The position numbers and the translations under genes are program-made. Positions 11,454-34,846 of a stretch of DNA of 39,121 nucleotides are shown piece after piece (position 1 is the first letter of the stretch; the number at the start of each line of letters is the position of its first letter). The notes beneath the pieces are model-generated. The model was not told the DNA's origin, ran no database searches, and worked only from the letters and a program-made list of their open reading frames with translations. This DNA comes from a virus, in UHGV virus genome UHGV-1369668; one strand, 5' to 3'.

Positions 11454-11778
11454 GCTTGTCACCTTTCTACCCTTTTGTTTTTCTTCACCAGTACCATACA
11501 AAAAAGGCAACCACCTTATTTGGTGGCTACCTTCTTGTTAGGGGTACAATGGTGTTTTTAGCAATTAACCAATTTTATTAATAACATACTAAAAAAAAAA
11601 TATATATGGCTATTTGGGGAAGATTGCCCATTTTTTGCCCGTTTTTGCACGATTTGTTGAAACTGCACAAAAACTCATTTTGACTTTTGTGAACTTTTGC
11701 CACTTGCACTACTGGTATCCCAGTGTTAAGATAAAGGCACAACGAAGCACAAAACAACAAGTTGAAAGGAGCACGAAA

Positions 11779-12687
11779 ATGAAGAAAGATGTTTACGAAA
11801 TAGTTACAGAAAGATTTTTGGAGAAGCTTGAACAGGGCATTATCCCTTGGAAAAAACCTTGGAAAATGGTCGGCGGTGCTTTTCCGGCTTATCCTCTTGG
11901 AAGTAAAAAGCCATACGGATTTATTAACCAGATGTTACTCGATTTTGAGTATGGAGAGTTTGCTACTTTTGAAACTATCAAGAGAAACGGCGGCAAGGTT
12001 AAGAAGGGTGAAAAGTCAAGACTTATCGTTGGATGGATTCACACCACCGAAAAGATAAAGGATGAGAACGGCGAAACGGTCGTTGACGATGATGGCAATG
12101 AACAATATAAAGACAGATTCGCATTGAGATATTATCAGGTATTTAACGTATACACACAGGTTGAAGGGCTTAAGGACAACATCGATATAGAGGACGAGAC
12201 AAGCGCACTAATCGAGTCGGATTTTGTTCCTGGAGATGCTTATCAAATGGCAAATGATATTATCGTCAATTATACAGATAGAGAGCAAATCTCGTTCAAC
12301 AATGGCGATATATCAAACAGGGCTTATTATCTTCCTTCTGCTGATTCAATAACAGTCCCGAATATGTCCCAGTTCGAAGATGTTAACAAGTATTATAGTA
12401 CCGTTTTTCACGAGATGGTTCACTCAACAGGACATCAATCGAGGTTAGATAGAGAACTCGAAAAGAAGGCAGCTCACGGATCTAAGGAATATAGCCGAGA
12501 GGAGTTAGTCGCCGAAATCGGATCCGCCGCATTAATGAACATCTGCGGAATAGAGAACGAAGACACTTTCGAAAATTCGGCTGCTTATATTCAAAGTTGG
12601 TCGAAAGCTCTTAAGGACTCGCCCAAAATGATAGTATATGCTAGTGCTCAGGCACAAAAGGCAGTCGAGTATATTATCGAAAAATAG
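11779..12687 (+). CDS. ardC: ArdC-like antirestriction protein (ssDNA-binding N-domain plus HExxH metalloprotease domain)
   Basis: The N-terminal IPWKKPW...YYQVFNV motif region is typical of the ArdC-N/DUF1738 fold. A C-terminal HEMVHSTGH zincin motif is present. The RBS GAAAGGAG precedes ATG 11779; the track's N-terminal extension from 11614 lacks an RBS and is rejected. Confidence 0.7.
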   Translation: MKKDVYEIVTERFLEKLEQGIIPWKKPWKMVGGAFPAYPLGSKKPYGFINQMLLDFEYGEFATFETIKRNGGKVKKGEKSRLIVGWIHTTEKIKDENGETVVDDDGNEQYKDRFALRYYQVFNVYTQVEGLKDNIDIEDETSALIESDFVPGDAYQMANDIIVNYTDREQISFNNGDISNRAYYLPSADSITVPNMSQFEDVNKYYSTVFHEMVHSTGHQSRLDRELEKKAAHGSKEYSREELVAEIGSAALMNICGIENEDTFENSAAYIQSWSKALKDSPKMIVYASAQAQKAVEYIIEK

Positions 12688-13554: not shown

Positions 13555-13965
13555 TTACAGTTTTATTTTTTTTATAGTCCTTTGAATAATCCTGTGAATA
13601 CTTTGGTCTTCCTTCCCATAAAGCACCGCGATTTTATGCACCCCAACACCTTCAATAAACCTCAGGGACATAATTTCGCGTTTTCGACTGTCCTTGATTC
13701 CTTCGATAGCTTCCGTCACGAGATATTTATTAGCTTCGCTCAGTTTCTTAAGTCTATCGATTTCTTGACGGATTTCCGCGCACATTATGGCACACTTCTC
13801 AACCCGTGAGCTTATGTCATTATTCGATATAGTCACGGGCGATATTTTTTGAGTGATGCTCGTTGCTATAGTCTCCCAACCTTCAAGCTCAAGCTCTAAC
13901 CGCCATATCTCGTGATTTATTGACTTGTATTCATTTAGAATTTTTCTTTTTTGCTCATAATTCAT
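13555..13965 (-). CDS. ArpU/RinA-like late-gene transcriptional activator (sigma region-4-like HTH)
   Basis: 136 aa. The C-terminal REIMSLRFIEGVGVHKIAVLYGKEDQSIHRIIQRTIKKI matches the sigma-70 r4 / ArpU pattern. Its position upstream of the packaging genes is typical for Firmicutes phages. Confidence 0.55.
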   Translation of the reverse strand: MNYEQKRKILNEYKSINHEIWRLELELEGWETIATSITQKISPVTISNNDISSRVEKCAIMCAEIRQEIDRLKKLSEANKYLVTEAIEGIKDSRKREIMSLRFIEGVGVHKIAVLYGKEDQSIHRIIQRTIKKIKL

Positions 13966-18219: not shown

Positions 18220-19066
18220 TTACCCTATAAAATCAGTAATACTCATTTGTGCATAAACAGGAAAATCAAGCATTTCATTCTTTGCCCTTGTATAGAAATT
18301 TCTATCGATTTCAAATCCAAATGCGCTTCTTCCAAGATTATGTGCTGCTCTTAATGTGCTACCTGAACCACAACATGGATCAATTACAACATCTCCTTCA
18401 TCTGTAAAAATATTAATTAACTGTTCTAATACTTTCACTGGCTTTTGTGCAGGGTGAATCTTTGGAATCTCTTTACCATCTTTTTCCCACTTGAACCAAT
18501 TGAATATCATGTGTCCTGTCCCCCTGATGTTTTTTCCTTCTTCATCAACCTGACAACCATTTCTAAATTTTGGAAGTCTATCTCGGTACAAAACAAGCGC
18601 ATATTCTGTTGCACCGACAATCCTCATATTTGCTTTCAAAACCTGCGGTGAATAATTCTTAATAAACACAAGCGGAATATAATTCACAAATCCATGTTTT
18701 TTTTGCTGCATCAATCAATGTTTGCATCTGTTCAAATGCACAAAATACAATCATGCATGGTGAATTGCTGCTTCTTCCTCTCTGTAATGGTTTGGTATCA
18801 TCTTTCTTTAGCATCTTGCTGCAGAAATGAAAATATTCATACAGATTAAAATTAAAATCTGAATTAAAAGCAGATTTTCCTGCAAGTTTGCTTTCTCCAT
18901 TTTTATTGTCACCACCTATATACCATGAAGGATTGCTTCCATAGAAATTCGTTCCTACATTATATGGAACATCTGCAATAATAAGCTGTGCAGGTGGTAT
19001 TGCATATTTCTTGTAATTCTGCATTGAATCACGATATATTTCACATTTGATTTTCTTTTGTTTCAT
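18220..19066 (-). pseudogene. Beta-class (CcrM/Hia5-like) N6-adenine or N4-cytosine DNA methyltransferase, frameshifted in an A8 homopolymer
   Basis: The upstream ORF has motif IV (IIADVPYN). The downstream ORF has HPAQKP and motif I (VIDPCCGSGST). The two overlap by about 56 nt. Removing one A from the A8 run at about 18697-18704 fuses them into a protein of roughly 281 aa. Confidence 0.75.
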
Positions 19067-23860: not shown

Positions 23861-24120
23861 ATATAGCTCCTTCCATATCGTTTTATGAAATCCTGTCTGC
23901 TATGCGTCTTCTCATAGACTAATTGCCCACATATTCTACTTAGCTTGCTAGCAGCAGTACTGCTATGTATTTCGTTATGGCATCTTATACATAGTGGTAT
24001 TACAAGTCCGTCCTCGTCAGCTAATTTTCTGAGTCCCCTGCCAAATACCAAATGATGCATATTATCACTAGGTCTATTGCAAACAGCACATAATTTCTCA
24101 TAATCAGTTATTGTTCCCAT
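23857..24120 (-). CDS. HNH endonuclease (about 88 aa from MGTITDY)
   Basis: CAVC...HHLVF...CIRCHNEIH. Confidence 0.55.
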   Translation of the reverse strand: MGTITDYEKLCAVCNRPSDNMHHLVFGRGLRKLADEDGLVIPLCIRCHNEIHSSTAASKLSRICGQLVYEKTHSRQDFIKRYGRSYI

Positions 24121-24917
24121 AACAAATCCTCTATTCCTATTGGTGCAGTTAGTTTTCTGGTCCTTACACAGTACGGACACGACTCACATCTAATTGGTTC
24201 GCTTTCTCCGTTCCGTATGGATAAATAACTATTCATATTCATCTCAATGTAATTAAGCGCATGGTCTAATATATTTTGAGGTATGTTTATAACAGCAATC
24301 TCTGGATTATCGCTCTTACTTACGGCCGCTATATAACAAGCAAGTTTTTCTCCGGTATTAATCTCAACTATTTTTTGATATAAAGCCAATTGTCCTGTAT
24401 AAAAATAAGCTTCTATAAAGGTTGCATATCCGTAATCCCGTATTTTCCACGCCCTATGTAAATCAGAGACTGTCTTAAAATCGGTAATAAATTTGTGCTC
24501 CATATATGAGTCCATTTTTATTTTCCAATTCGCACCCGCCCAATAACCTGTCATTATTTCCTGCTTTTTTCCTGACATTGCTTGCTGAAACAACTCATCT
24601 TCAAGGGTTCTTGATATCATTTTTTCAGCTTGCTTATAAGGGGCTTTTAATTCGCCCTTTTGAGTAAAAATCTCTGGATTACTCTTTTTGAAATCATCAA
24701 GTGTTCCCTCGTAAAAAGAATCGCAATAACTACCTACTAACATTGGTAAGGTTTTTTCTTCCTGCCACTCACCCTTGCGCATAGCAATATAACGTGCTTC
24801 ACATCCTCTGACTTCCATATATCCGATACAATTCAAAAAATCATGAAACGAACAGTATATATCATTAGCCTCTTTGCTATAATAGTTATCTTTTGTTAAA
24901 ACAAACTCGTCACTCAT
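24108..24917 (-). CDS. PD-(D/E)xK-type exonuclease (partner of RecT) with a C-terminal Cys cluster
   Basis: Lies immediately downstream of recT. The C-terminus contains CESCPYC. The call is by synteny and composition. Confidence 0.45.
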   Translation of the reverse strand: MSDEFVLTKDNYYSKEANDIYCSFHDFLNCIGYMEVRGCEARYIAMRKGEWQEEKTLPMLVGSYCDSFYEGTLDDFKKSNPEIFTQKGELKAPYKQAEKMISRTLEDELFQQAMSGKKQEIMTGYWAGANWKIKMDSYMEHKFITDFKTVSDLHRAWKIRDYGYATFIEAYFYTGQLALYQKIVEINTGEKLACYIAAVSKSDNPEIAVINIPQNILDHALNYIEMNMNSYLSIRNGESEPIRCESCPYCVRTRKLTAPIGIEDLLWEQ

Positions 24918-25695
24918 TAGCAGGTACCTCTGTTATACTTCCGTCTTCCTCAACAACTGTGTCGAATACGTTTACAACCGCATCAGATACAGGCTTATTA
25001 ACTCGGTTCTTGTCCAGATCGCTACTTTCATCCCATGCAAGCCTTGCCTCTACACTTTCAAAATCTATTTCAATGTATTTGCAAAGCCTTCTTAATACTG
25101 TTTTTATACACATTTGGTCAAAAGAGTTTTTCCAGGCTTTACCATTTGCCATTTTTGAATAGTTGGAGCGAACTGCGTTTATATCGCTTACCGACATTGC
25201 TTCATACTGCATTCCGCCGTCCTTATATGTAACTACTGCAAACGCACCTATAATATCTCCACCATTAAACGGCAAAGGCGAAAAATTAATTGATTGCTCT
25301 CCGTCAATAATCCTCTCTTCGAAGATGTCGCCTTCCCTAACTACTTTTGCATAGATATCTAATACCGGTCGGATAGAATACTTTTTTGCAATTTTTATTT
25401 CACCTCTATAACTGGTCTGAAACTCAATTGACTGTCCGTATGGTATTAAATAACACTCGTCAGCTAAAAAATCCAAGCCTAAATAAGCTCCTTTTACCAG
25501 ACCCTGAATAAGCATTTGCTGATTGATTTTTGCAAGCTCAGGCTTATCGTTTAGTACTGCAATTGCGTTCTGCACAAAGCGCGTTTTATTAAACTCCTTA
25601 GGCAGGGCAGTTTCAATAGACACAAGCTTATCCATAAGACAATCCGATAACTTTGCCTTGACTTCATTTTTCTCTTGTACAACTAACTCACTCAT
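24910..25695 (-). CDS. recT: RecT-family single-strand annealing protein
   Basis: CYLIPYGQSIEFQTSYRGEIKIAKKY matches the RecT signature (xPYG...YRG). Followed by an exonuclease gene. Confidence 0.6.
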   Translation of the reverse strand: MSELVVQEKNEVKAKLSDCLMDKLVSIETALPKEFNKTRFVQNAIAVLNDKPELAKINQQMLIQGLVKGAYLGLDFLADECYLIPYGQSIEFQTSYRGEIKIAKKYSIRPVLDIYAKVVREGDIFEERIIDGEQSINFSPLPFNGGDIIGAFAVVTYKDGGMQYEAMSVSDINAVRSNYSKMANGKAWKNSFDQMCIKTVLRRLCKYIEIDFESVEARLAWDESSDLDKNRVNKPVSDAVVNVFDTVVEEDGSITEVPANE

Positions 25696-26005: not shown

Positions 26006-26239
26006 TTAATGTTTTAATATCTCTTTGCAGTTTCTAAGCACTTCCTGAATCTCTATCAATGTCATCTGCTCACTACAGCAATTCAAAATATTAAAGATGT
26101 CGCTAAGCTGCTCCTTAACCCTTGTATCCCTGCGCTCGATTTCAGATAGAATCATATTTGTCGGCAGGTTCATTAGTACTACTCGCTTTTCGCTCAAAGA
26201 CATAGCTTTTGTCCTTGTAGCAATTTCATTTACTTCCAT
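26006..26239 (-). CDS. Hypothetical protein (about 77-92 aa; start uncertain)
   Basis: The track ORF 26006..26410 overlaps the upstream gene. The likely start is ATG MEVNEI at 26239, or an upstream TTG with RBS AAGGGGGGAG. Confidence 0.3.
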   Translation of the reverse strand: MEVNEIATRTKAMSLSEKRVVLMNLPTNMILSEIERRDTRVKEQLSDIFNILNCCSEQMTLIEIQEVLRNCKEILKH

Positions 26240-26252
26240 AGCAGATAAAATG

Positions 26253-27197
26253 TTAGTAGACTCCTGTGTCAAGTTCTTGTTCAATTTGCTCCCCCCTTTC
26301 GATAATGTATGATGCATAATAACTCTCGACATTATTACGCAAATTACTATCAGCACAACTGTCGCCGTGATATTTATCAAGTGCCCAGTAAATTCCATTT
26401 CCCTCGTCAATAAGTGACTTCAAATAACTGGTGGCTACATCAACATTACTAAGTAGGTCATAAGGATTTTCAATGTCGTGATAAGTTGTATTAAGCTGAC
26501 AAGCTCCAAAACAAGTATTGCTACTATTAACAGCTTCTCGATCATATCCACTTTCAACCTCAATAAGTGCCATAACCAAACCAAATTCAAGCCCCTTACT
26601 TTCGCATATATTCTTGATTTTTATCTGCTCGTCAGGGCTAATAGCAATCTCTTCAATAACATAAGCATCGTAATATCCAGGTGTGAAATCATTGTTATAT
26701 TCAATTCCAAACACCTCGTTATATATTTCTTCCTTGCTCTGTTCGTATTTTGGATATTCCCTTTTCACATAGTCGGTATCTTCTTTTGCTCTTGCATTTG
26801 TCCCCCACAAAATCAGAGCAGACGCTAAAAGTAACGTGACCTTATACCAACGCCCTAAAATATCGCGTCGCATTACCGTCTTCTTCTTTGGCTTCTTCTT
26901 GGCATATCTTGGATCCGCTGTAGAGACATTTCTTTTATCAGCCTTACTCTTTAACATTTCCGGCCTTACATACCAATCTTCCGGCTTAAGCTCAAGATAG
27001 TTTGCTAGTTTAGCAGCGATATACTTTGACTTGCTGTGCCTGTGATCTCCGAAAAAGTTGTACAGAGATTTTTTTGAGACACCAATGTCCTCGGCTACTT
27101 TTACAAAGGTAAGTCCGCGTTTTTCTATGCGTTTACGGCAGACTCTTTCAAATCGTCTAAACTCTTTTTCGTTTAGTTGAAGTTCGATTAATTGCAT
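26253..27197 (-). CDS. Membrane-anchored HTH (XRE-like) regulator fused to a lytic transglycosylase (SLT) domain
   Basis: N-terminal HTH LTFVKVAEDIGVSKKSLYNF, then a basic stretch and TM segment WYKVTLLLASALILWG. The C-terminus has the SLT signature LIEVESGYDREAVNSSNTCFGACQLN...YLKSL. Confidence 0.55.
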   Translation of the reverse strand: MQLIELQLNEKEFRRFERVCRKRIEKRGLTFVKVAEDIGVSKKSLYNFFGDHRHSKSKYIAAKLANYLELKPEDWYVRPEMLKSKADKRNVSTADPRYAKKKPKKKTVMRRDILGRWYKVTLLLASALILWGTNARAKEDTDYVKREYPKYEQSKEEIYNEVFGIEYNNDFTPGYYDAYVIEEIAISPDEQIKIKNICESKGLEFGLVMALIEVESGYDREAVNSSNTCFGACQLNTTYHDIENPYDLLSNVDVATSYLKSLIDEGNGIYWALDKYHGDSCADSNLRNNVESYYASYIIERGEQIEQELDTGVY

Positions 27198-27406
27198 CAG
27201 GGCTCTCCTTTCTCTCTAATTTCATATCCCGCAAGGTCTAACATCTTAATGAACTCCGGGAAGGTTCTCGGATAAACTTCTGAGAATCTATAACCGTATG
27301 CCTGTCTCGATATTCCAAGCTCAGCGGCAACTTGAGTTTTCTTTGGCAGACATCTTAAGATTCTGTCAGCCTTGCGGGCTTCTTCTGTTAAAATTACTTT
27401 TGCCAT
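27197..27406 (-). CDS. HTH DNA-binding protein (about 69 aa; start uncertain)
   Basis: HTH QVAAELGISRQAYGYR. The track ORF extends to 27478 and overlaps the Cro-like gene. No candidate start has a strong SD. Confidence 0.35.
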   Translation of the reverse strand: MAKVILTEEARKADRILRCLPKKTQVAAELGISRQAYGYRFSEVYPRTFPEFIKMLDLAGYEIREKGEP

Positions 27407-27443: not shown

Positions 27444-27635
27444 TCATGGCAAAAAAATAACATCATCCATTGAAACATCGATGCACTCGCATACCTTTAC
27501 GGCATTAACTAGCTTAATGCTTGATGGCTTTTCTTCCCATCCACGGTATGTATTGGGGTGAACATCGCAATAATCTGCTATTTTTTCAACAGGGATATTC
27601 TTTAATCGTCTCCACTCTGGCAGTGTTAATTTCAC
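27444..27635 (-). CDS. Cro-like HTH repressor (63 aa, GTG start)
   Basis: Divergent from the CI-like gene. RBS AAGGAGG lies 7 nt upstream of GTG. HTH KIADYCDVHPNTYRGWEE. Confidence 0.55.
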   Translation of the reverse strand: MKLTLPEWRRLKNIPVEKIADYCDVHPNTYRGWEEKPSSIKLVNAVKVCECIDVSMDDVIFLP

Positions 27636-27727
27636 TTTTCATCCTCCTTTCCTATTTTTATATGTAGTTGTTGAACATTAGTTCCATACCATAGATTGAT
27701 ATTTTCCTGTGCCCATTGATACTATAT

Positions 27728-27762
27728 CACAACATTTTGTTGTTTACAACATTTTTTTGTGA
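27728..27762. promoter_or_regulatory. Operator sites of the genetic switch (ACAAC-N5-GTTGT inverted repeats)
   Basis: cACAACATTTTGTTGTttACAACATTTTTTTGTG overlaps the -35 of the repressor promoter. A third copy, TAACATTTTGTTGTG, lies at about 27426-27440. Confidence 0.5.
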
Positions 27763-27786
27763 AAAATTACAAAATTATGGTATAAT
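27757..27786 (+). promoter_or_regulatory. Sigma-70-type promoter for the CI-like repressor gene
   Basis: TTGTGA, then 18 nt, then TGgTATAAT, upstream of the GGAGG RBS and ATG 27808. Confidence 0.5.
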
Positions 27787-27807
27787 CTCATCATGGAGGA
27801 CAAAGCA

Positions 27808-28260
27808 ATGGAAAATTTTGGCAAAAACTTAAAGCGAATTAGAACTAATAAACTATTATCACAAGAGGCATTAGCTTCTACTATGCAAATGACACAAGCA
27901 AATATTTCGTCCTGGGAAACAGGCAGAACAGAACCTTCTATTAGTGATATATACAAATTGAGTCAAATATTGGAATGTACCATTAGTGAATTGACAGGCA
28001 CAGAACAGCTTGGACGAAGCAATACACTCTCTGATGATTCAAATACTTTAGAAAGTCCATACGACCGTATTTTACAATTGTCAGATAAACTAACAAGTCA
28101 AGAACTAATAAGATTACAGAAGTTATTTAAGATTAAAGCTGAATATAAGCAAAATCTCGAACAATTGGAACAGCAAAAGCAACTATATGAAGAAGAGTAC
28201 AAAAAGCACACAAGCGATTTCTTGAACGGATATAGGCCTAAAAAGGATGGATTTATATGA
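27808..28260 (+). CDS. CI-like XRE-family repressor (about 150 aa)
   Basis: HTH LSQEALASTMQMTQANISSWETGRTEPSISDIYKLSQIL. Divergent from Cro and adjacent to the integrase. Confidence 0.65.
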   Translation: MENFGKNLKRIRTNKLLSQEALASTMQMTQANISSWETGRTEPSISDIYKLSQILECTISELTGTEQLGRSNTLSDDSNTLESPYDRILQLSDKLTSQELIRLQKLFKIKAEYKQNLEQLEQQKQLYEEEYKKHTSDFLNGYRPKKDGFI

Positions 28261-29246
28261 AAATAGAAAAAGTAGGGAATCAGTTCCGAGTACGAAAAAT
28301 GATTAATTGTATAAGGTACACCATGACTTTTGATCATGAGCCAAAGCAAAGTGAGATAAAACGCGAATTGTCGCGCTTAATGCGTGAGCAGCCAAAAGAC
28401 GATACGCCAAAGGGTACTTTTGAATATTATGCTAAAAAGTATATGCAAATACAGGATAATATATTGTCACCATCAACACTTCGATCGTATGGATTTATAT
28501 TAGATAAGTTAAGCAGTGAATTTAAGCGAAAACAACTTAAAGATATTACTCAGGCTGATGTACAGGCAGAAATAAATATAATTGCTAAAAACAAAAGTCC
28601 TAAGACAGTTCGTAACAATCACGCATTCATATCAGCTGTTATTAAAATGTATCGCCCTAATTTAATACTGCATACCAAATTGCCTCAGAAAATCAAGAAA
28701 CAAAAAACAGTTCCATTAAGGGATGATATAAAGGCAGTTTTAGATGAGGTTAGAGATACAAGATATTATATTCCTTATCGCCTTGCCATATATGGCCTAA
28801 GAAGGGGCGAAATTTGCGCGATAACGGCCCTTGATATATCTGATGCCAATATTCTTACCATAAACAAAGATAAGGTCTATAATGGCGAAAAAAAGTGGGT
28901 AATTAAGCCATATCCCAAAACCACCGATTCTCAAAGGGCCATATACATTGATAATGAGCTTGCTGATTTAATAAGAAAACAAGGTTATGCTTTTAACGGG
29001 CACCCTTCCAGACTGTACGATAATCTTAAACATGTACAGGATAGACTTGGCATCGAGCGGTTTAGATTCCACGATTTCAGGGCGTATATGGTAACAGAGC
29101 TTTCACAAGCCGGATATTCAGAAGCGGATATTATGAAAATGGGCGGATGGTCTACACCTAATATTATGAAATCCGCGTATCGTCAATCTCGTATCCAAAA
29201 GGAACTCGAAACACAGAAAAACATATCCTCTACACTGACGTTATAA
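28257..29246 (+). CDS. int: Tyrosine site-specific integrase
   Basis: 329 aa. The C-terminal catalytic region has R...HDFRAY...GGWSTPNIMKSAYRQ (the R-H-R-Y family pattern). Followed by attP. Confidence 0.85.
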   Translation: MKIEKVGNQFRVRKMINCIRYTMTFDHEPKQSEIKRELSRLMREQPKDDTPKGTFEYYAKKYMQIQDNILSPSTLRSYGFILDKLSSEFKRKQLKDITQADVQAEINIIAKNKSPKTVRNNHAFISAVIKMYRPNLILHTKLPQKIKKQKTVPLRDDIKAVLDEVRDTRYYIPYRLAIYGLRRGEICAITALDISDANILTINKDKVYNGEKKWVIKPYPKTTDSQRAIYIDNELADLIRKQGYAFNGHPSRLYDNLKHVQDRLGIERFRFHDFRAYMVTELSQAGYSEADIMKMGGWSTPNIMKSAYRQSRIQKELETQKNISSTLTL

Positions 29247-29551: not shown

Positions 29552-32500
29552 TCATTTGCTAAGAACCACTATATCATTATAGGATTTCAAGATGTCGCTC
29601 TTGCTTGTTCCGTTCTGTTTGTACTTCTTAGGTATTTTGCCATTATTCTGTTCAAGCAATATGTCATACTTTTGCTCTGTAGTAAGATTGCTCTTTAGAA
29701 GTACGGGTACCCATTGTTTCATTTTGGTGTACTGTTTTATTTCGTTATATACCTTAATTTCAGCATCAGTATGTCCTTCAGTTGCATATTCAATAACGGA
29801 CTGCTTAGCATTATTAATTCCTAATTCTGCTAAATGCTGTTCGGCATCATCTTTTGCAAATTGCTCTGTAAAGTAATTCATTAGGGCATCGGTACCACCC
29901 GAGTTGTATATGTTATAAGGCTTGTTAGTTGATGTAAACTCTTCACTGACAGCACTCTTTCCGCTATCTGAAGCGATAGTTGATACACTCTTAAGGACTT
30001 CATTTTTCTGTTCATTTGAAAGATTATTAAACACTTCATTCTTTGCCAATTCATTCCTAATCTTTGCGTCAGTGCTTCCTGCTACTTTCTGATATTCAGT
30101 ATATGTCTGCGGATCTAATTTATCTCCACCGATTTTAACGTTAGTTTCTAGCTTAGGCAAGGCTCCCTTGTCCGCTATTTTCTGACCGTTAGTATTCTCA
30201 GAATTATATACATCTCTGGTGGCCCGATAGCCTTCATCTGTCTGAAGATTACCAATATATGCCGGCGAAAAAAATTGATAAGCCGCATTTGCAAAAGTGC
30301 TATCGAACGGACTATTATTTTGTGTCTGTCCCTTCATATCAATATACGGCTCATTTTGGGCACTTAAGAACGGAATCTTGTTTTCAACTTTGTTAAGTTG
30401 TCTTTTGTAAATAGCATCTAATCCAGTTGCATCTGTATATGTTGATCTCCTTGTCGGGTCAACAATTCTTGCAATCTGTCCGCCTACTGTAGGTATAGCC
30501 TGTGTAGCATAACTTGCAGCCATGTTTGCCAATCCTGTGACTGCTGCCGACGCTACATTCTCACCACTATTAAACGCGCTTGATACAGACTGCATAGCGT
30601 CCGCAATACCAGATAACATTGATGTCTCAATAATAGGACTTATAAGATTACCGGTTGAGTCAAGTATTGTTCTGAGACCATTCTCTTTATTAAATACTTG
30701 TCTTATATCCCCGCCGCTCTCTTCCACAACCTTTGCAAGCTGTGCGCCTAGTAATAACGGCATTACACCGGGTGCCGCCCAATCAATACTATAAGACTTA
30801 TCATTCATGTTAATAGCATAAGTCTGGTTTCCTTCCTGCGCATCCATCTTGGCTGTATCACCGTCATTAATATGTACGATACCTTTATCAAACAGATAAT
30901 ATCCAAGATAAGCTAGTCCGGTTCCTGTAAGTGTTTTGCTCCAACTTTCAATGACATCCGAAGCCGTTGCTTTTCCAGTCATTAGTTTTCCTGTTTTTGC
31001 AATACTTGAAACAGCCCCTAAAGGCGAATAATCAACACCACTTCTTAATACGTTTGCCGGCGTTTTCTTGAATGGTATTAGTCCTTCAATCAACATATGT
31101 CCTGCCGTAGCTCCGGCAGTTCCTTCGTTTTTCAGTTTTGTGCTAGTCTCTGTTACAATCCTAGCAATTGCATTATCCTCATGAAATGTTGAATACTCTG
31201 CCTGCGCTTTGGCATATTCTCTTGCCTTGTTAAGCACTTCAATATCAGACGGATTTTCGCTTTCGAATATGCTTGCATCATATCCATTTGCTTTCAACCA
31301 ACCCGCAAGGGAAGTAGAATACTTTTTCCTTACTGCCGTATAATCAGATATACCTTTATCAACGAGGTCGCTTGCTTTTCTTAAAATCTTACTATCAAAC
31401 GTATCTTTATTTCTGTCAAGTCCTTGCTTAAGATTATCACTATACTTAGTGCCATTAAGCTGACGATACATTTTTGTATCTGCATCATTTCTACTTGCGT
31501 CAATCAGCTTTGAATCACTAATAGGATTCAGGACTGATTTAGTACGCTGAATGCGCCCACCGCTGACTTTATCAACACCACGCTCAAGCAAAGCCGCTAA
31601 AGTATTTGATGTCCCTGTTATAAATCCGAATATATTATTACCTAAATAATTTCGAATCATAGTTTTGGGGTTTCCAAGCATAGCAAGGTATCGCCAAGCT
31701 TCGAATTTATCAAATAATGATGACTTTCCGAGGTCATTTGCCACAAGCCTGAGCGCATCTGCCTCAGCATCAACATATTCCTTTGAGTTTTCGTCAAGTC
31801 CCTGTATGCTTTCGAAGATATCATTAACAGCTTTCATGGTATCTGGCTTCACGCCGAATGTTCCTGTTGCCATTTTAATATTCAAGAAATCTTTTATGTC
31901 TCTTGTTGTAGCTCCCTCGTTCAGCAGATTAGCAATGAAATCAATATCGCCATCGCTAAACTGATTTCTTATTGAGGACGACTCTTTTGCCAACTCTTCA
32001 TTAATGATATTTTTAAGTTCGTCAATTGTAGGCTTATAAACATCTGTTGTTGCAGCTGCTTCAGGCGCATCTTTGCCCATTTCTGATAATGCTGTGGCAA
32101 ACCTTTTATCAAGTCTATCACTAAGGCTCTGTATGCTCTTTGAATCTCTTATATGAGTTTTTTCCCACGTCTTAGCTTTTGAATTAAGGATATTATATGC
32201 ACTACTTTCAATGCCCTGTGCGGTGTGTCTCGTCCATTTAGCTGTGGACTGCAGTACTCGACCGGCATTACTTACTGAAGAGTCTAATTTCTTTATTAAC
32301 AGTACCCTTTGAGTATTTAACCTTGTTGCGGAATTGATATCGCCATTTGCGATTGCATCATCATACTGCGCTGACAGATCGTGCGCACTAAGCATTATCT
32401 TATCAACCCCAACATTACTGCTAATATCCTCTTTATCATTTATTACAGCTTTTACAAATTCATTGCGCTTTTCCACTGTATCAAGTGCCTTGGACGCAGC

Positions 32501-34846
32501 GTCAAGAGTATCAATCTCGTGTTCAACATAGTGTTTATTAAAGGCATCTAACGTCTGCTGTGAAATGCCTCTATAAATACCGCTCCTCTTGGCTGTATTA
32601 GTAATCGTCCTCGACTCTGCCATATCATTAGTAGGATTTTCATTTACAATAGGCATGCCAACTTTTTTAGTACCGACGGTATCATCAATAGCAGACGTTT
32701 CGTTGGTCTGAATATCATTTATTATGTTGCTATCGTTATTTGTATTTCCAATAACATCTGTTAACGTACCATTATTGAGTCTCGACTCATACCCCGATAA
32801 AACGTCATCAATTTCAGATTGAAGCTGCGTATCGAAGATATCGTTAAATCCAAAGACATTATTAAACCTTTCACCCTCTAAAGAACCGCGCTTATAATCC
32901 TGTGACAGTTCTATTATCCTTGCTATTCCATCAGAGTTGACTCCATTAAATTCACCGAGCTCACCGATTTGACTTTGTAACACTGGCCATAGGTCCGACT
33001 TATCTAATGGAACACCAACATTTGGGTCTTTCGTAAACAAATTCCTACCGACCGCATTATTCATAGCTCTTACAGTGTCGTATGTATTAATATCGTTTAA
33101 GTCGGCATCAGTCACAAGAATTTTGTATCCGTCTATTGTATCTAATAAACGCTTTCTGAATGTCTTATACGTATCCTTTGCATCATTTACCAGAAGATAG
33201 CCATTTTGAAGCAAGTCTTTTATCTCTTTATAGGCAGAGTTGATTTCACTTCTTGTCGCATCTATATCTTCCTTTCTTCTGATATTATCAATACCGTCTA
33301 CAGCCCTTGAAAATCTTGCCACCGCATTATTAAATGCCGCCTTATCTTCTTTACTATCAAACTTAAGAGCTTTCAAATTATCATTACGAATGTATGAGTT
33401 CGCAACTCCCCTCATAGAATTTTGGGTAGAATAATCATTAATATCATTTGCGATATTATTATTTGTCTGTATATTATCGACAATAGGTTTGTCGCTAATA
33501 TTATCAGCCTTATTGTAGTTACTATTTGAATTAATAATTGCATTGGCTGACTGATTGGTTGGTGCTTCAATAGTTTGTTTGTTTGAATTAATATTTGTTA
33601 CTGACGACATATCATCCAACTCTTTATCCAAATTTACAGTATTGCTCTGTGACTTTGACAATATCTCTGAATCTATCTGATTGGTAATCTGATTTCTTGG
33701 TATATCATCAGAATTGCGAATCGCATCACTAATAACGTTGTCTGCATTAGTTTCAATATTAAGCTTTGACGATACGTATTTACTGATTGGCTTGAGTGCC
33801 ATAGAACCACCTGCAAAAACACCTCCCATTGCTGCGCCTGTTGCTACAGACGACAATATTCTACTTACAGAGTTTTTATTGGCATAGTTGCGCGCTTCTT
33901 CCTCTGATAATCCGTTCGATAACGCCTCAGAATAGTCCTTAATTCGCTGTGAATTATCTTTGTTGATTAAACTATCAAGCAACTCCTGAGAGCCCGATTC
34001 TAGCCCTTCTTCTAGCCCTTCTGTAAGCGCACCTGCGCCAACATTCTTTGCAACGTCGCCTAATCCCTTAATTGTGGAAGAACCTAGCTTGTTGTTAATT
34101 ACATCTATTCCTTTTGCCTGCAATAATCCGCCAACAGTTCCGCCGGCTAAACCATAGGCAGAAGCTTGTCTGTTATTAGCTCCGTTTTCCTTCGCAAGAT
34201 TATATAACTCACCTGATGTATTACCGCCCGCTGTAATTCCAGACAATAAGGCACCGCCAACAGCCGAGCTTCCTAACATCTCAGCAACATTTGTGCCGAT
34301 ATCATAAACCATGTTTCCGGCATTAGAGTTAATATTTGATTTTGCTCCCTCTTTGATATTTGCTCTCTGAATAGCAAATCTATTTGAATTATTACCGTCT
34401 ATTGCTCCCGCCGTATTTTCAACTGCACTTCCTATTGCGCTAATCGGAGCTGTGATAGTGTTATATACGGTTGATAATACGGGGTGTTCGGAAGCAAACT
34501 TGCCCGATTTTGTAAGAGAAGCCTGTCTTTTCTGTCTTGCTATGTTGTCGCTTCGATTGAGTACTTTATTAGCGTTGCTATCGGTTATTGCTGTAAGGTC
34601 GCTTCTAGCTGAGCTTAGAGTTGCGTTATTGCGCATTGCGGACGGCGATATAACCTGTGTTCCTTTAGGAACGACTTGCGTATTAGCTGTACTTAAATCA
34701 ACCGACTTCGCGTTATTATTTTTTTTGAGCGCAGGCAACTCTCTATACTTCGGTGTAGAAGTTGAAGAGGCGGCTTTTTTTACCGCCTCCGCCTTATCCA
34801 TTTGCCTCTGTGTTTCTTCAACCTGTTTAAGAGTGAATTTAGGCAT
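29552..34846 (-). CDS. Giant protein (1764 aa) with Gly/Ala-rich hydrophobic segments; candidate internal-virion/ejection or tape-measure-like protein
   Basis: It is the last gene before attP. It is translationally coupled to the upstream 349-aa gene through TAAGGAGATAATAT-ATG. Segments such as MLGSSAVGGALLSGITAGG, SSVATGAAMGGVFAGGSMALKP and GTAGATAGHMLIEGLIPF resemble TMP / T7 gp16-type membrane-penetrating regions. No enzymatic motif recognised. Confidence 0.4.
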   Translation of the reverse strand: MPKFTLKQVEETQRQMDKAEAVKKAASSTSTPKYRELPALKKNNNAKSVDLSTANTQVVPKGTQVISPSAMRNNATLSSARSDLTAITDSNANKVLNRSDNIARQKRQASLTKSGKFASEHPVLSTVYNTITAPISAIGSAVENTAGAIDGNNSNRFAIQRANIKEGAKSNINSNAGNMVYDIGTNVAEMLGSSAVGGALLSGITAGGNTSGELYNLAKENGANNRQASAYGLAGGTVGGLLQAKGIDVINNKLGSSTIKGLGDVAKNVGAGALTEGLEEGLESGSQELLDSLINKDNSQRIKDYSEALSNGLSEEEARNYANKNSVSRILSSVATGAAMGGVFAGGSMALKPISKYVSSKLNIETNADNVISDAIRNSDDIPRNQITNQIDSEILSKSQSNTVNLDKELDDMSSVTNINSNKQTIEAPTNQSANAIINSNSNYNKADNISDKPIVDNIQTNNNIANDINDYSTQNSMRGVANSYIRNDNLKALKFDSKEDKAAFNNAVARFSRAVDGIDNIRRKEDIDATRSEINSAYKEIKDLLQNGYLLVNDAKDTYKTFRKRLLDTIDGYKILVTDADLNDINTYDTVRAMNNAVGRNLFTKDPNVGVPLDKSDLWPVLQSQIGELGEFNGVNSDGIARIIELSQDYKRGSLEGERFNNVFGFNDIFDTQLQSEIDDVLSGYESRLNNGTLTDVIGNTNNDSNIINDIQTNETSAIDDTVGTKKVGMPIVNENPTNDMAESRTITNTAKRSGIYRGISQQTLDAFNKHYVEHEIDTLDAASKALDTVEKRNEFVKAVINDKEDISSNVGVDKIMLSAHDLSAQYDDAIANGDINSATRLNTQRVLLIKKLDSSVSNAGRVLQSTAKWTRHTAQGIESSAYNILNSKAKTWEKTHIRDSKSIQSLSDRLDKRFATALSEMGKDAPEAAATTDVYKPTIDELKNIINEELAKESSSIRNQFSDGDIDFIANLLNEGATTRDIKDFLNIKMATGTFGVKPDTMKAVNDIFESIQGLDENSKEYVDAEADALRLVANDLGKSSLFDKFEAWRYLAMLGNPKTMIRNYLGNNIFGFITGTSNTLAALLERGVDKVSGGRIQRTKSVLNPISDSKLIDASRNDADTKMYRQLNGTKYSDNLKQGLDRNKDTFDSKILRKASDLVDKGISDYTAVRKKYSTSLAGWLKANGYDASIFESENPSDIEVLNKAREYAKAQAEYSTFHEDNAIARIVTETSTKLKNEGTAGATAGHMLIEGLIPFKKTPANVLRSGVDYSPLGAVSSIAKTGKLMTGKATASDVIESWSKTLTGTGLAYLGYYLFDKGIVHINDGDTAKMDAQEGNQTYAINMNDKSYSIDWAAPGVMPLLLGAQLAKVVEESGGDIRQVFNKENGLRTILDSTGNLISPIIETSMLSGIADAMQSVSSAFNSGENVASAAVTGLANMAASYATQAIPTVGGQIARIVDPTRRSTYTDATGLDAIYKRQLNKVENKIPFLSAQNEPYIDMKGQTQNNSPFDSTFANAAYQFFSPAYIGNLQTDEGYRATRDVYNSENTNGQKIADKGALPKLETNVKIGGDKLDPQTYTEYQKVAGSTDAKIRNELAKNEVFNNLSNEQKNEVLKSVSTIASDSGKSAVSEEFTSTNKPYNIYNSGGTDALMNYFTEQFAKDDAEQHLAELGINNAKQSVIEYATEGHTDAEIKVYNEIKQYTKMKQWVPVLLKSNLTTEQKYDILLEQNNGKIPKKYKQNGTSKSDILKSYNDIVVLSK

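Follow-up and report, generated by a model that had tools for sequence, protein, structure and literature searches.

Proteins that share single features with the element described here are known from several settings. The SLT enzymes T7 gp16, PRD1 P7, phage tail lysins, VirB1, PrgK, TraG and CwlT are components of structural or transfer apparatuses. Endolysins with a signal peptide or a signal-arrest-release (SAR) segment, e.g. Lys44 of the Oenococcus phage fOg44 and P1 Lyz, become active when the holin collapses the membrane potential. Ltp of the Streptococcus phage TP-J34 is a superinfection exclusion lipoprotein that is expressed from the prophage and carries helix-turn-helix (HTH) repeats outside the cell, and the HTH of RodZ binds the protein MreB, not DNA. 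The LytTR-type factor HigX of Caulobacter exemplifies a membrane-associated factor that can regulate promoters while it resides in the membrane (PMC13384398). Here we describe HTH-SLT, a protein of the UHGV virus genome UHGV-1369668 (39,121 nucleotides; the whole stretch is called the window), which joins an HTH domain, a single hydrophobic segment and an SLT domain. An earlier note on this DNA had read the protein as a membrane-tethered regulator with a wall-cleaving ectodomain, which might sense the state of the cell wall or act in superinfection exclusion. We regard it as reasonably probable, although far from certain, that two independent early modules have been fused in a clade of temperate phages of gut Clostridia, that the enzyme is exported early, and that the HTH stays in the cytoplasm.

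The gene and the parts of its product are located in the window as follows:

26253..27197, minus strand: HTH-SLT open reading frame (ORF), intact, 314 amino acids, ATG start; contains HTH, Lys-rich tether, hydrophobic segment, conserved linker and SLT domain
26970..27170, minus strand: five-helix HTH of the Cro/cI type (XRE), residues about 10-76; putative recognition helix around S41-F48 (SKKSLYNF)
26862..26969, minus strand: Lys/Arg-rich tether, residues 77-112, predicted to be disordered, includes the internal Met109
26787..26861, minus strand: hydrophobic segment, residues 113-137 (ILGRWYKVTLLLASALILWGTNARA); signal anchor or internal Sec signal peptide with an A-x-A site (between ARA and KED)
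26670..26717, minus strand: linker motif EVFGIEYNNDFTPGYY, residues 161-176
26268..26657, minus strand: SLT/GH23 domain, goose-lysozyme-like, residues 181-310
26550..26555, minus strand: codons of the catalytic Glu215-Ser216 (gaa agt)

The C-terminal domain was found to be SLT-like, as had been claimed before, and the Pfam score, the catalytic motifs and the fold agree in this respect. The Pfam family SLT (PF01464) matched residues 200-274 with 26.4 bits, above the gathering score of 21.3, and homologues of HTH-SLT reached 32.7-44.3 bits. The strings EVESGYD, CFGACQLN and YLKSL, which the earlier note had quoted, are all present in the protein. Across 14 aligned members of the family, E215-S216, G231 and Q234 were invariant; these residues correspond to two motifs of family-1 lytic transglycosylases, the catalytic Glu-Ser and G-x-x-Q. 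At the position of motif III, which is of the A-Y-N-x-G type, the window protein has K-Y-H-G-D (Y276, G278). G278 was invariant, Y276 was invariant only in a 6-sequence alignment, and either His or Asn occupies the Asn site across the members. The AlphaFold2 (AF2) model had predicted local distance difference test (pLDDT) values above 90 over residues 180-310. Foldseek comparison of the SLT domain with the PDB yielded a probability of 1.0 for the goose-type lysozymes and lytic transglycosylases 1gbs, 3gxk, 5aa2 (MltF), 3t36 (MltE) and 5ohu (Slt), and MltC was also matched, with E-values of only 4e-3 to 6e-2 and target-normalised TM-scores of 0.15-0.55. The nearest viral fold models were GEWL/SLT-type proteins, the PRD1 transglycosylase among them. 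We infer that the SLT ectodomain is catalytically competent. Because the catalytic residues are conserved, the ectodomain would be an enzyme rather than a sensor.

The N-terminal domain had been described as an XRE-type HTH, and this assignment holds, although the window protein itself stays below the Pfam thresholds: homologues exceed them, and the AF2 fold agrees. The HTH_3 cut-off of 23 was surpassed by the aligned homologues P0003 (36.1) and P0154 (25.3) and by a standalone ORF at locus L005 (30.0). When the family profile of the N-domain was compared with the PDB, the 434 repressor, HipB, CylR2 and 434 Cro were matched with E-values of about 1e-3. The AF2 model of residues 1-81 had a pLDDT of 84.7 and was a bundle of five helices, at residues 10-26, 31-38, 42-50, 58-67 and 72-75. 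The best fold matches, XRE structures among them, were 3ivp, SaPI2 Stl, HipB, lambda cI and C.BclI, with TM-scores of about 0.5-0.65 and E-values of only 0.03-0.4. One relative, P0155 (L007:9950-10003), deserves a separate remark. Its database call begins at an internal Met (MFLNAMDKKL…), but the frame extends upstream as MTLRELKLNDKEHV…. Because the frame is open, the true protein has a full HTH, and the precomputed Pfam list, which contains SLT only, understates it.

The two domains are connected by the tether, the hydrophobic segment and the linker. The single hydrophobic segment (residues 113-137) reached a maximal Kyte-Doolittle value of 1.38 in a 19-residue window, the net charge was +5 upstream and +1 downstream, and AF2 placed a helix at residues 114-131. 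The layout of this segment resembles that of a signal peptide, with a basic n-region, an h-region of 16-20 residues that often ends in Pro, and a subsequent V/A-x-A. The same n/h/c layout is found in the unfused relatives, in which the segment is an N-terminal signal peptide. Because the segment is short and the ARA-KED site follows, it might not anchor the protein stably as a transmembrane (TM) helix but serve as a cleavable signal peptide. Thus, of the single TM helix proposed in the earlier note, one hydrophobic segment with an AF2 helix remains, with the caveat that its anatomy is that of a Sec signal peptide. The Lys-rich tether is confined to this lineage; in other fused members, only 3-5 residues separate the HTH from the hydrophobic segment. 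An internal translation start at Met109 was considered and rejected, as a convincing Shine-Dalgarno motif was not present upstream (…GAAGAAGACGGTAATG) and the other fused members have no equivalent Met. The linker motif can be written as EVFG-x-[DE]-x-x-x-DF-x-PGYY. E161 is invariant, and there is hardly any variation at V162, G164, D170, F171, P173 and Y176. Fused SLT proteins, unfused SLT proteins and P0015, a variant with a probable 3D domain, all keep the motif, and AF2 confidence was low in this region. Conceivable roles are those of a pro-peptide, of a peptide that binds the wall or of a peptide that binds a partner.

Relatives were collected in two ways: 1.84 billion representatives were searched exhaustively with HMMER, and a 5.8-billion-protein collection was searched with a profile. 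About 12 diverged proteins with 31-39% identity share the layout of HTH, hydrophobic segment, linker motif and SLT domain, and they are encoded in the corresponding genomic slot, so that the fusion, for which the earlier note had suggested a search in relatives, is not confined to the window. In L007, L008 and L009, the integrase and the cI-like repressor are on one side, and on the other side a cro-like gene is separated from the fusion by one to a few small genes, with further small genes, RecT and DUF3799 after the fusion.

The two-module reading, the most parsimonious account of the data, is based on the observation that each half is also found alone in the corresponding slot of related phages. 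In L012 and L013, the slot is occupied by a protein that consists of signal peptide, linker and SLT domain, without an HTH, and both loci keep the homologue of the small downstream gene. The HTH alone occupies the slot in 30 clusters, with lengths of 68-82 amino acids; the gene tables of L014-L018 contain no hydrolase family near the standalone HTH. A third arrangement is present in L019, where P0015/P0177 combines HTH, hydrophobic segment and linker motif with a different muralytic domain, which is probably of the 3D type (sub-threshold Pfam 3D match). Lastly, L005 contains three adjacent genes for an HTH protein, a small protein with two TM segments and a signal-peptide protein. The protein encoded by the third gene, which shares 38% identity with the C-terminus of P0015, is probably an exported 3D-type hydrolase. 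L005 and P0015 had at first suggested that HTH and hydrolase form an obligate pair (a 'Rosetta stone'); this idea was weakened when a hydrolase proved to be absent from the vicinity of most standalone HTH homologues. Fused and unfused proteins are intermingled in a rough neighbour-joining tree of their SLT domains. Among the relatives, we also noted P0024 (495 amino acids), in which a signal peptide and an SLT domain are joined to a part that, judged by eye only, resembles an AAA+/RuvB-like ATPase (…GPPGLGKTSLAAVIA…); the protein is either an unusual fusion or the product of mis-assembly.

A chimeric assembly or a frameshift that joined two genes is almost certainly not the explanation for HTH-SLT. 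The only apparent sign of a split relative was the database protein P0002 (206 amino acids), which begins exactly at Met109. It was taken for a standalone SLT gene at first and then rejected as a truncation, as the 45 nt in front of it (L002:1-45; ERZ10622438 NODE_154590, a 773-bp contig of a public metagenome) turned out to be the Illumina Nextera transposase adapter (…TCTCGTGGGCTCGGAGATGTGTATAAGAGACAG). The adapter created a false upstream stop and thereby a false 206-residue 'standalone SLT' in the protein databases. The 90%-identity cluster of the window protein comprises 272 sequences, and the 15 members listed all have 314 amino acids and stem from many contigs and samples; the one database name found in this cluster is 'hypothetical protein'. 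The reading frame is intact in the near-identical loci L001, L003 and L011, and diverged homologues share the architecture. Hence, a chimeric mis-assembly, with the gene split in relatives, as the earlier note had considered, is not what was found. In addition, the whole ORF is under purifying selection (ratio of nonsynonymous to synonymous polymorphism, pN/pS, 0.05-0.16), and for the HTH part, comparison of the window with L001 or L003 revealed 10 synonymous and 0 nonsynonymous differences.

The genomic neighbourhood of HTH-SLT comprises the following features:

27444..27635, minus strand: cro-like HTH gene (HTH_3, 29.5 bits), opens the rightward/lytic early operon
27197..27406, minus strand: conserved 69-amino-acid gene between the cro-like gene and HTH-SLT; its stop overlaps the HTH-SLT start
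26006..26239, minus strand: conserved small ORF, 77 amino acids (MEVNEIATRTKAMS...); homologues 3' of the SLT gene in L012 and L013
25952..26003, no strand assigned: two GC-rich hairpins after the 77-amino-acid ORF, the second with a T-rich tail ATTTATATTTT on the minus strand
24910..25695, minus strand: RecT, conserved landmark downstream of the slot
24108..24917, minus strand: DUF3799 PDDEXK nuclease, conserved landmark downstream of the slot
27793..28260, plus strand: cI-like repressor, divergent from the cro operon
28257..29246, plus strand: tyrosine integrase, divergent from the cro operon
36648..36962, minus strand: holin, in a late lysis cassette (35923..36962) separate from HTH-SLT
35923..36651, minus strand: endolysin with glucosaminidase and PG_binding_1 domains, in the late lysis cassette

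HTH-SLT is thus the second gene downstream of cro, as had been stated in the earlier note. Its ATG is preceded by a good Shine-Dalgarno motif (AAAGGAGAG), and its start overlaps with the stop of the upstream 69-amino-acid gene in the sequence TGATG. This overlap suggests that the gene is translationally coupled into the cro operon. Homologues of the 69-amino-acid gene are located upstream of fused (L009) as well as unfused (L013) versions. Promoter-like sites in both directions are present within the intergenic region 27721-27786, and a terminator-like site was not found on the minus strand between cro and the HTH-SLT gene. The second of the two hairpins is a possible terminator that would end an immediate-early unit of cro, orf69, HTH-SLT and orf77 in front of RecT and the replication genes; a 75-amino-acid ORF lies between the hairpins and the RecT/DUF3799 module. 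A terminator at this position would imply control by antitermination or read-through. Taken together, the domain calls and the operon layout bear out the architecture proposed at the outset, i.e. that a gene of an early operon encodes an HTH followed by a single hydrophobic segment and by an SLT domain outside the cytoplasm.

The window is the genome of a temperate phage with a GC content of about 38%, and it encodes a large terminase, a P22-like portal and a capsid protein. A scan of genome contigs gave a sole match, a contig of one Clostridiales metagenome-assembled genome with 97% identity. Some additional genes were noted. Adjacent to the integrase is an ORF of 1764 codons (29552..34846, minus strand) without a Pfam or PHROG match. 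ORFs of similar size (1324-2109 amino acids where measurable; several reach the end of the locus) are present at the matching position in the related loci that cover this flank (L007, L008, L014, L015, L017 and L018). By size and position, the giant ORF near the integrase looks like a hallmark of this phage group. An ArdC-like protein with ArdcN and MPTase-PolyVal zincin domains is encoded at 11614..12687 on the plus strand, opposite to nearly all other genes of the window; by appearance, the gene is of an anti-restriction or 'polyvalent' kind, which is commoner in conjugative elements. Further cargo comprises a small protein with a weak match to sigma-70 region 4 (13555..13965, minus strand), an N6/N4 DNA methylase ORF of fragment size (18220..18714, minus strand) and a Cna_B-domain protein near the lysis cassette (37742..38359, minus strand). 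In L009, the gene at the repressor position (L009:11-661, minus strand) encodes a protein of 216 amino acids with an XRE HTH and a GNAT acetyltransferase domain, and a second small acetyltransferase is encoded further along the early operon (L009:10592-10879).

The fusion of two independent modules would operate as follows. Judged from sequence, the first module is predicted to be a small HTH protein of the Cro/cI type with about 74 amino acids. The second is predicted to be the precursor of an exported lytic transglycosylase, composed of a Sec signal peptide, the EVFG..DF.PGYY linker and the GH23/SLT domain. Given the operon layout, the gene would be transcribed together with cro directly after infection or induction. 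As the HTH has been added in front of a complete signal peptide, insertion with the N-terminus inside and the C-terminus outside is expected; the charge bias and the places where the substrates of the two domains lie also suggest a cytoplasmic HTH and an SLT domain on the wall side. There, the enzyme would cut glycan strands near the membrane at an early time, independent of the late holin and endolysin. Cleavage by signal peptidase at the V/A-x-A site is plausible, and we give it a roughly even chance. It would free the enzyme and leave the HTH with a remnant of the signal peptide; otherwise, the whole protein would remain tethered to the membrane. If cleaved, the fusion would effectively be a polyprotein that gives rise to the same secreted enzyme as in the unfused phages plus an HTH with a hydrophobic tail. 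The HTH would act like its standalone relatives, probably by DNA binding, at or from the membrane. Early cleavage of the wall might loosen the thick Gram-positive wall before lysis, disturb division or sporulation, or reactivate wall metabolism. Lambda kil is an early host-modifying gene next to recombination genes, and the analogy to it is positional only.

Several other readings were weighed against the fusion of two independent modules. One of them, an idea of the earlier note, is a one-component envelope sensor. The SLT domain would read the state of the peptidoglycan, and a signal through the membrane segment would switch DNA binding by the HTH and thereby tune phage gene expression. DNA-binding and extracytoplasmic domains are indeed united on one bitopic polypeptide, the fusion has been kept under purifying selection, and three configurations connect an HTH with an exported hydrolase. 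However, the halves of such a sensor would be expected to depend on one another, but each half often occurs alone at the corresponding slot, and the ectodomain has kept enzyme-type catalytic residues and can be exchanged for an unrelated fold, the probable 3D domain. Moreover, in most fused members just 3-5 residues lie between the HTH and the segment, and a short signal-peptide-like helix was judged to be a poor transducer; a conserved operator was not found in the exact-match search of five loci described below. A wall-state sensor is therefore unlikely. The alternative proposal, superinfection exclusion, did not gain support either. The gene is part of the lytic operon on the cro side without an intervening terminator, so that, by inference, it would be repressed in the lysogen, and PADLOC returned only weak generic HTH matches and no other defence-family match. 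A related view is that the fusion is a working unit, in which export or processing of the enzyme tethers, releases or destroys the HTH factor and thus provides a timer or checkpoint tied to Sec or the envelope; this has a small but appreciable chance. As a specific form, a secretion-coupled regulator or polyprotein can be envisaged, in which signal peptidase and then a site-2 or signal-peptide peptidase act, and export of the hydrolase releases or inactivates the HTH and thereby times early expression. The V/A-x-A site and the short, Pro-containing h-region are conserved in fused proteins as in the unfused secreted relatives, and the standalone homologues show that the HTH works as a soluble protein. 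Nevertheless, this scheme is purely inferential, and the internal signal peptide would have to follow a folded domain of 75-110 amino acids, so that we assign it a small chance.

The hydrophobic segment also bears on the question of whether HTH-SLT might be an accessory Sec-exported lysin that is placed in the wall early and becomes active once the membrane potential has been abolished by the holin. This role would suit a muralytic domain that is exported and has a signal-like segment, and in this lineage the segment is SAR-like, with a high content of Ala, Ser, Thr and Gly; the segments of other family members, however, are strongly hydrophobic and not SAR-like. In addition, the gene belongs to the cro operon. 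In window numbering, about 9 kb separate it from the lysis cassette, with the integrase/repressor block between the two, and the gene has the same place in relatives. As a canonical late holin and endolysin are present, HTH-SLT would not be the main lysin, and we consider an accessory role in lysis improbable. By analogy with phi29 p16.7 and with RodZ, the protein might anchor the phage DNA to the membrane or bind a host cytoskeletal partner, e.g. MreB, while the ectodomain opens the wall locally. A bitopic layout with the N-terminus inside and an XRE-type HTH, the position just upstream of recombination and replication genes, and the high conservation of the recognition-helix region across diverged phages are in line with such a function. 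On the other hand, neither HTH_25 nor DUF4115 was among the Pfam matches at E-values up to 1, no RodZ structure was among the top 50 fold matches, and the HTH is dispensable in related phages. An anchor of this kind is very improbable.

Some observations weigh against the fusion of two independent modules or parts of it. The HTH of the window protein scored below the gathering scores of Pfam, with 18.1 for HTH_19 (cut-off 30.2) and 14.8 for HTH_3 (PF01381; cut-off 23), and the hydrophobicity of the segment is no more than moderate (Kyte-Doolittle 1.38). A crude search of five early regions (window, L005, L007, L008 and L009), restricted to exact matches, covered perfect inverted repeats (half-sites of 5-7 nt, spacers of 0-12 nt) and shared 11-mers; no palindrome was shared by more than two loci, and nothing resembled an operator. 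This outcome points to no target site for the HTH and is compatible with DNA binding as well as with its absence. The sequence of the recognition-helix region (S-P-K-S-I-Y-N-F) varies unusually little among phages that are divergent in other respects, which would also fit a conserved protein partner instead of phage-specific DNA sites. The SLT tree has no support values, and some of its 'unfused' entries (e.g. P0012, 155 amino acids) may be fragments. Finally, the fusion has been retained over deep divergence and recurs with two hydrolase folds. The two halves could therefore cooperate, contrary to the assumption of independence.

The implications extend beyond the single protein. A clade of temperate phages of gut Clostridia seems to reserve an immediate-early slot for an exported glycan-cleaving enzyme, with either an SLT or a probable 3D domain, apart from the late endolysin, and this pattern at the level of the slot may matter more than the fusion itself. 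To our knowledge, there is no established role for cutting of the host wall so early in the phage cycle. Finding the role of early cleavage could reveal a new step in the infection of thick-walled anaerobes, e.g. priming of lysis, a block of division or sporulation, or the waking of dormant cells. If it were true that HTH and enzyme act together, the protein would be a compact natural transcription factor that is coupled to protein export.

Comparison with known systems shows which features of HTH-SLT are shared and which are its own. With the family-1 lytic transglycosylases Slt70, MltE, MltC and MltF, the C-terminal domain shares the match to the SLT hidden Markov model, the Glu-Ser, the G-x-x-Q and the fold of g-type lysozymes. 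In contrast to them, HTH-SLT has a small single catalytic domain, stems from a phage of a Gram-positive host, and carries an internal signal or anchor with a cytoplasmic HTH in front. The GH23 assignment is based on sequence and fold and does not separate a true transglycosylase, which forms a 1,6-anhydro product, from a hydrolytic muramidase. The specialised SLT enzymes of mobile elements likewise use this fold for local opening of the wall, and the PRD1 transglycosylase, the T7 core protein and tail lysins were among the fold matches. However, HTH-SLT is encoded in an immediate-early regulatory operon and not among the virion genes, and it has a Sec-type signal and an HTH.

The Sec and SAR endolysins (Lys44 of fOg44, P1 Lyz and R of phage 21) are phage muralytic enzymes with an N-proximal hydrophobic segment and Sec export, as is predicted for HTH-SLT. 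They are the main lysins encoded in late lysis cassettes, whereas HTH-SLT is encoded in the cro operon of a phage with a separate holin (36648..36962) and endolysin (35923..36651). Ltp is also a temperate-phage protein that is encoded near the genetic switch and contains an export signal and an HTH-type domain. It differs in that HTH-SLT has no Cys in or right after the segment (…LILWGTNARAKED…) and hence no lipobox, has a single, N-terminal HTH, and is encoded on the lytic side of the switch. Since this HTH precedes the signal, it should stay inside the cell, unlike that of Ltp.

RodZ has an N-terminal cytoplasmic XRE-like HTH, one membrane segment and a wall-linked extracytoplasmic C-terminal domain, and in this layout it resembles HTH-SLT. 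An identity with RodZ was rejected on the basis of the Pfam and fold searches given above; the C-terminal domain of HTH-SLT is different, and the protein is phage-encoded and optional. ToxR, CadC, TcpP, BcrR and HigX also combine a DNA-binding-type domain and a membrane segment on one polypeptide, HigX being a loose analogy. With the exception of BcrR, these proteins have winged helix or LytTR folds, whereas the HTH of HTH-SLT is of the Cro/cI type. Furthermore, the outer parts of membrane-bound one-component regulators are sensors or helix bundles, whereas that of HTH-SLT is predicted to be a catalytic wall hydrolase, and its halves occur separately. Searches with tblastn gave no match to HTH-SLT among INPHARED phages (E 1e-5) or PLSDB plasmids (E 1e-2), and full-text literature searches revealed neither a description of an HTH-TM-SLT phage protein nor a phage regulator that is tethered to the membrane and coupled to a hydrolase, so that the combination did not appear in the annotated phage and plasmid records and the literature searched. 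Both domains have textbook folds. In summary, the evidence points to a modular fusion rather than to a new principle of signalling.

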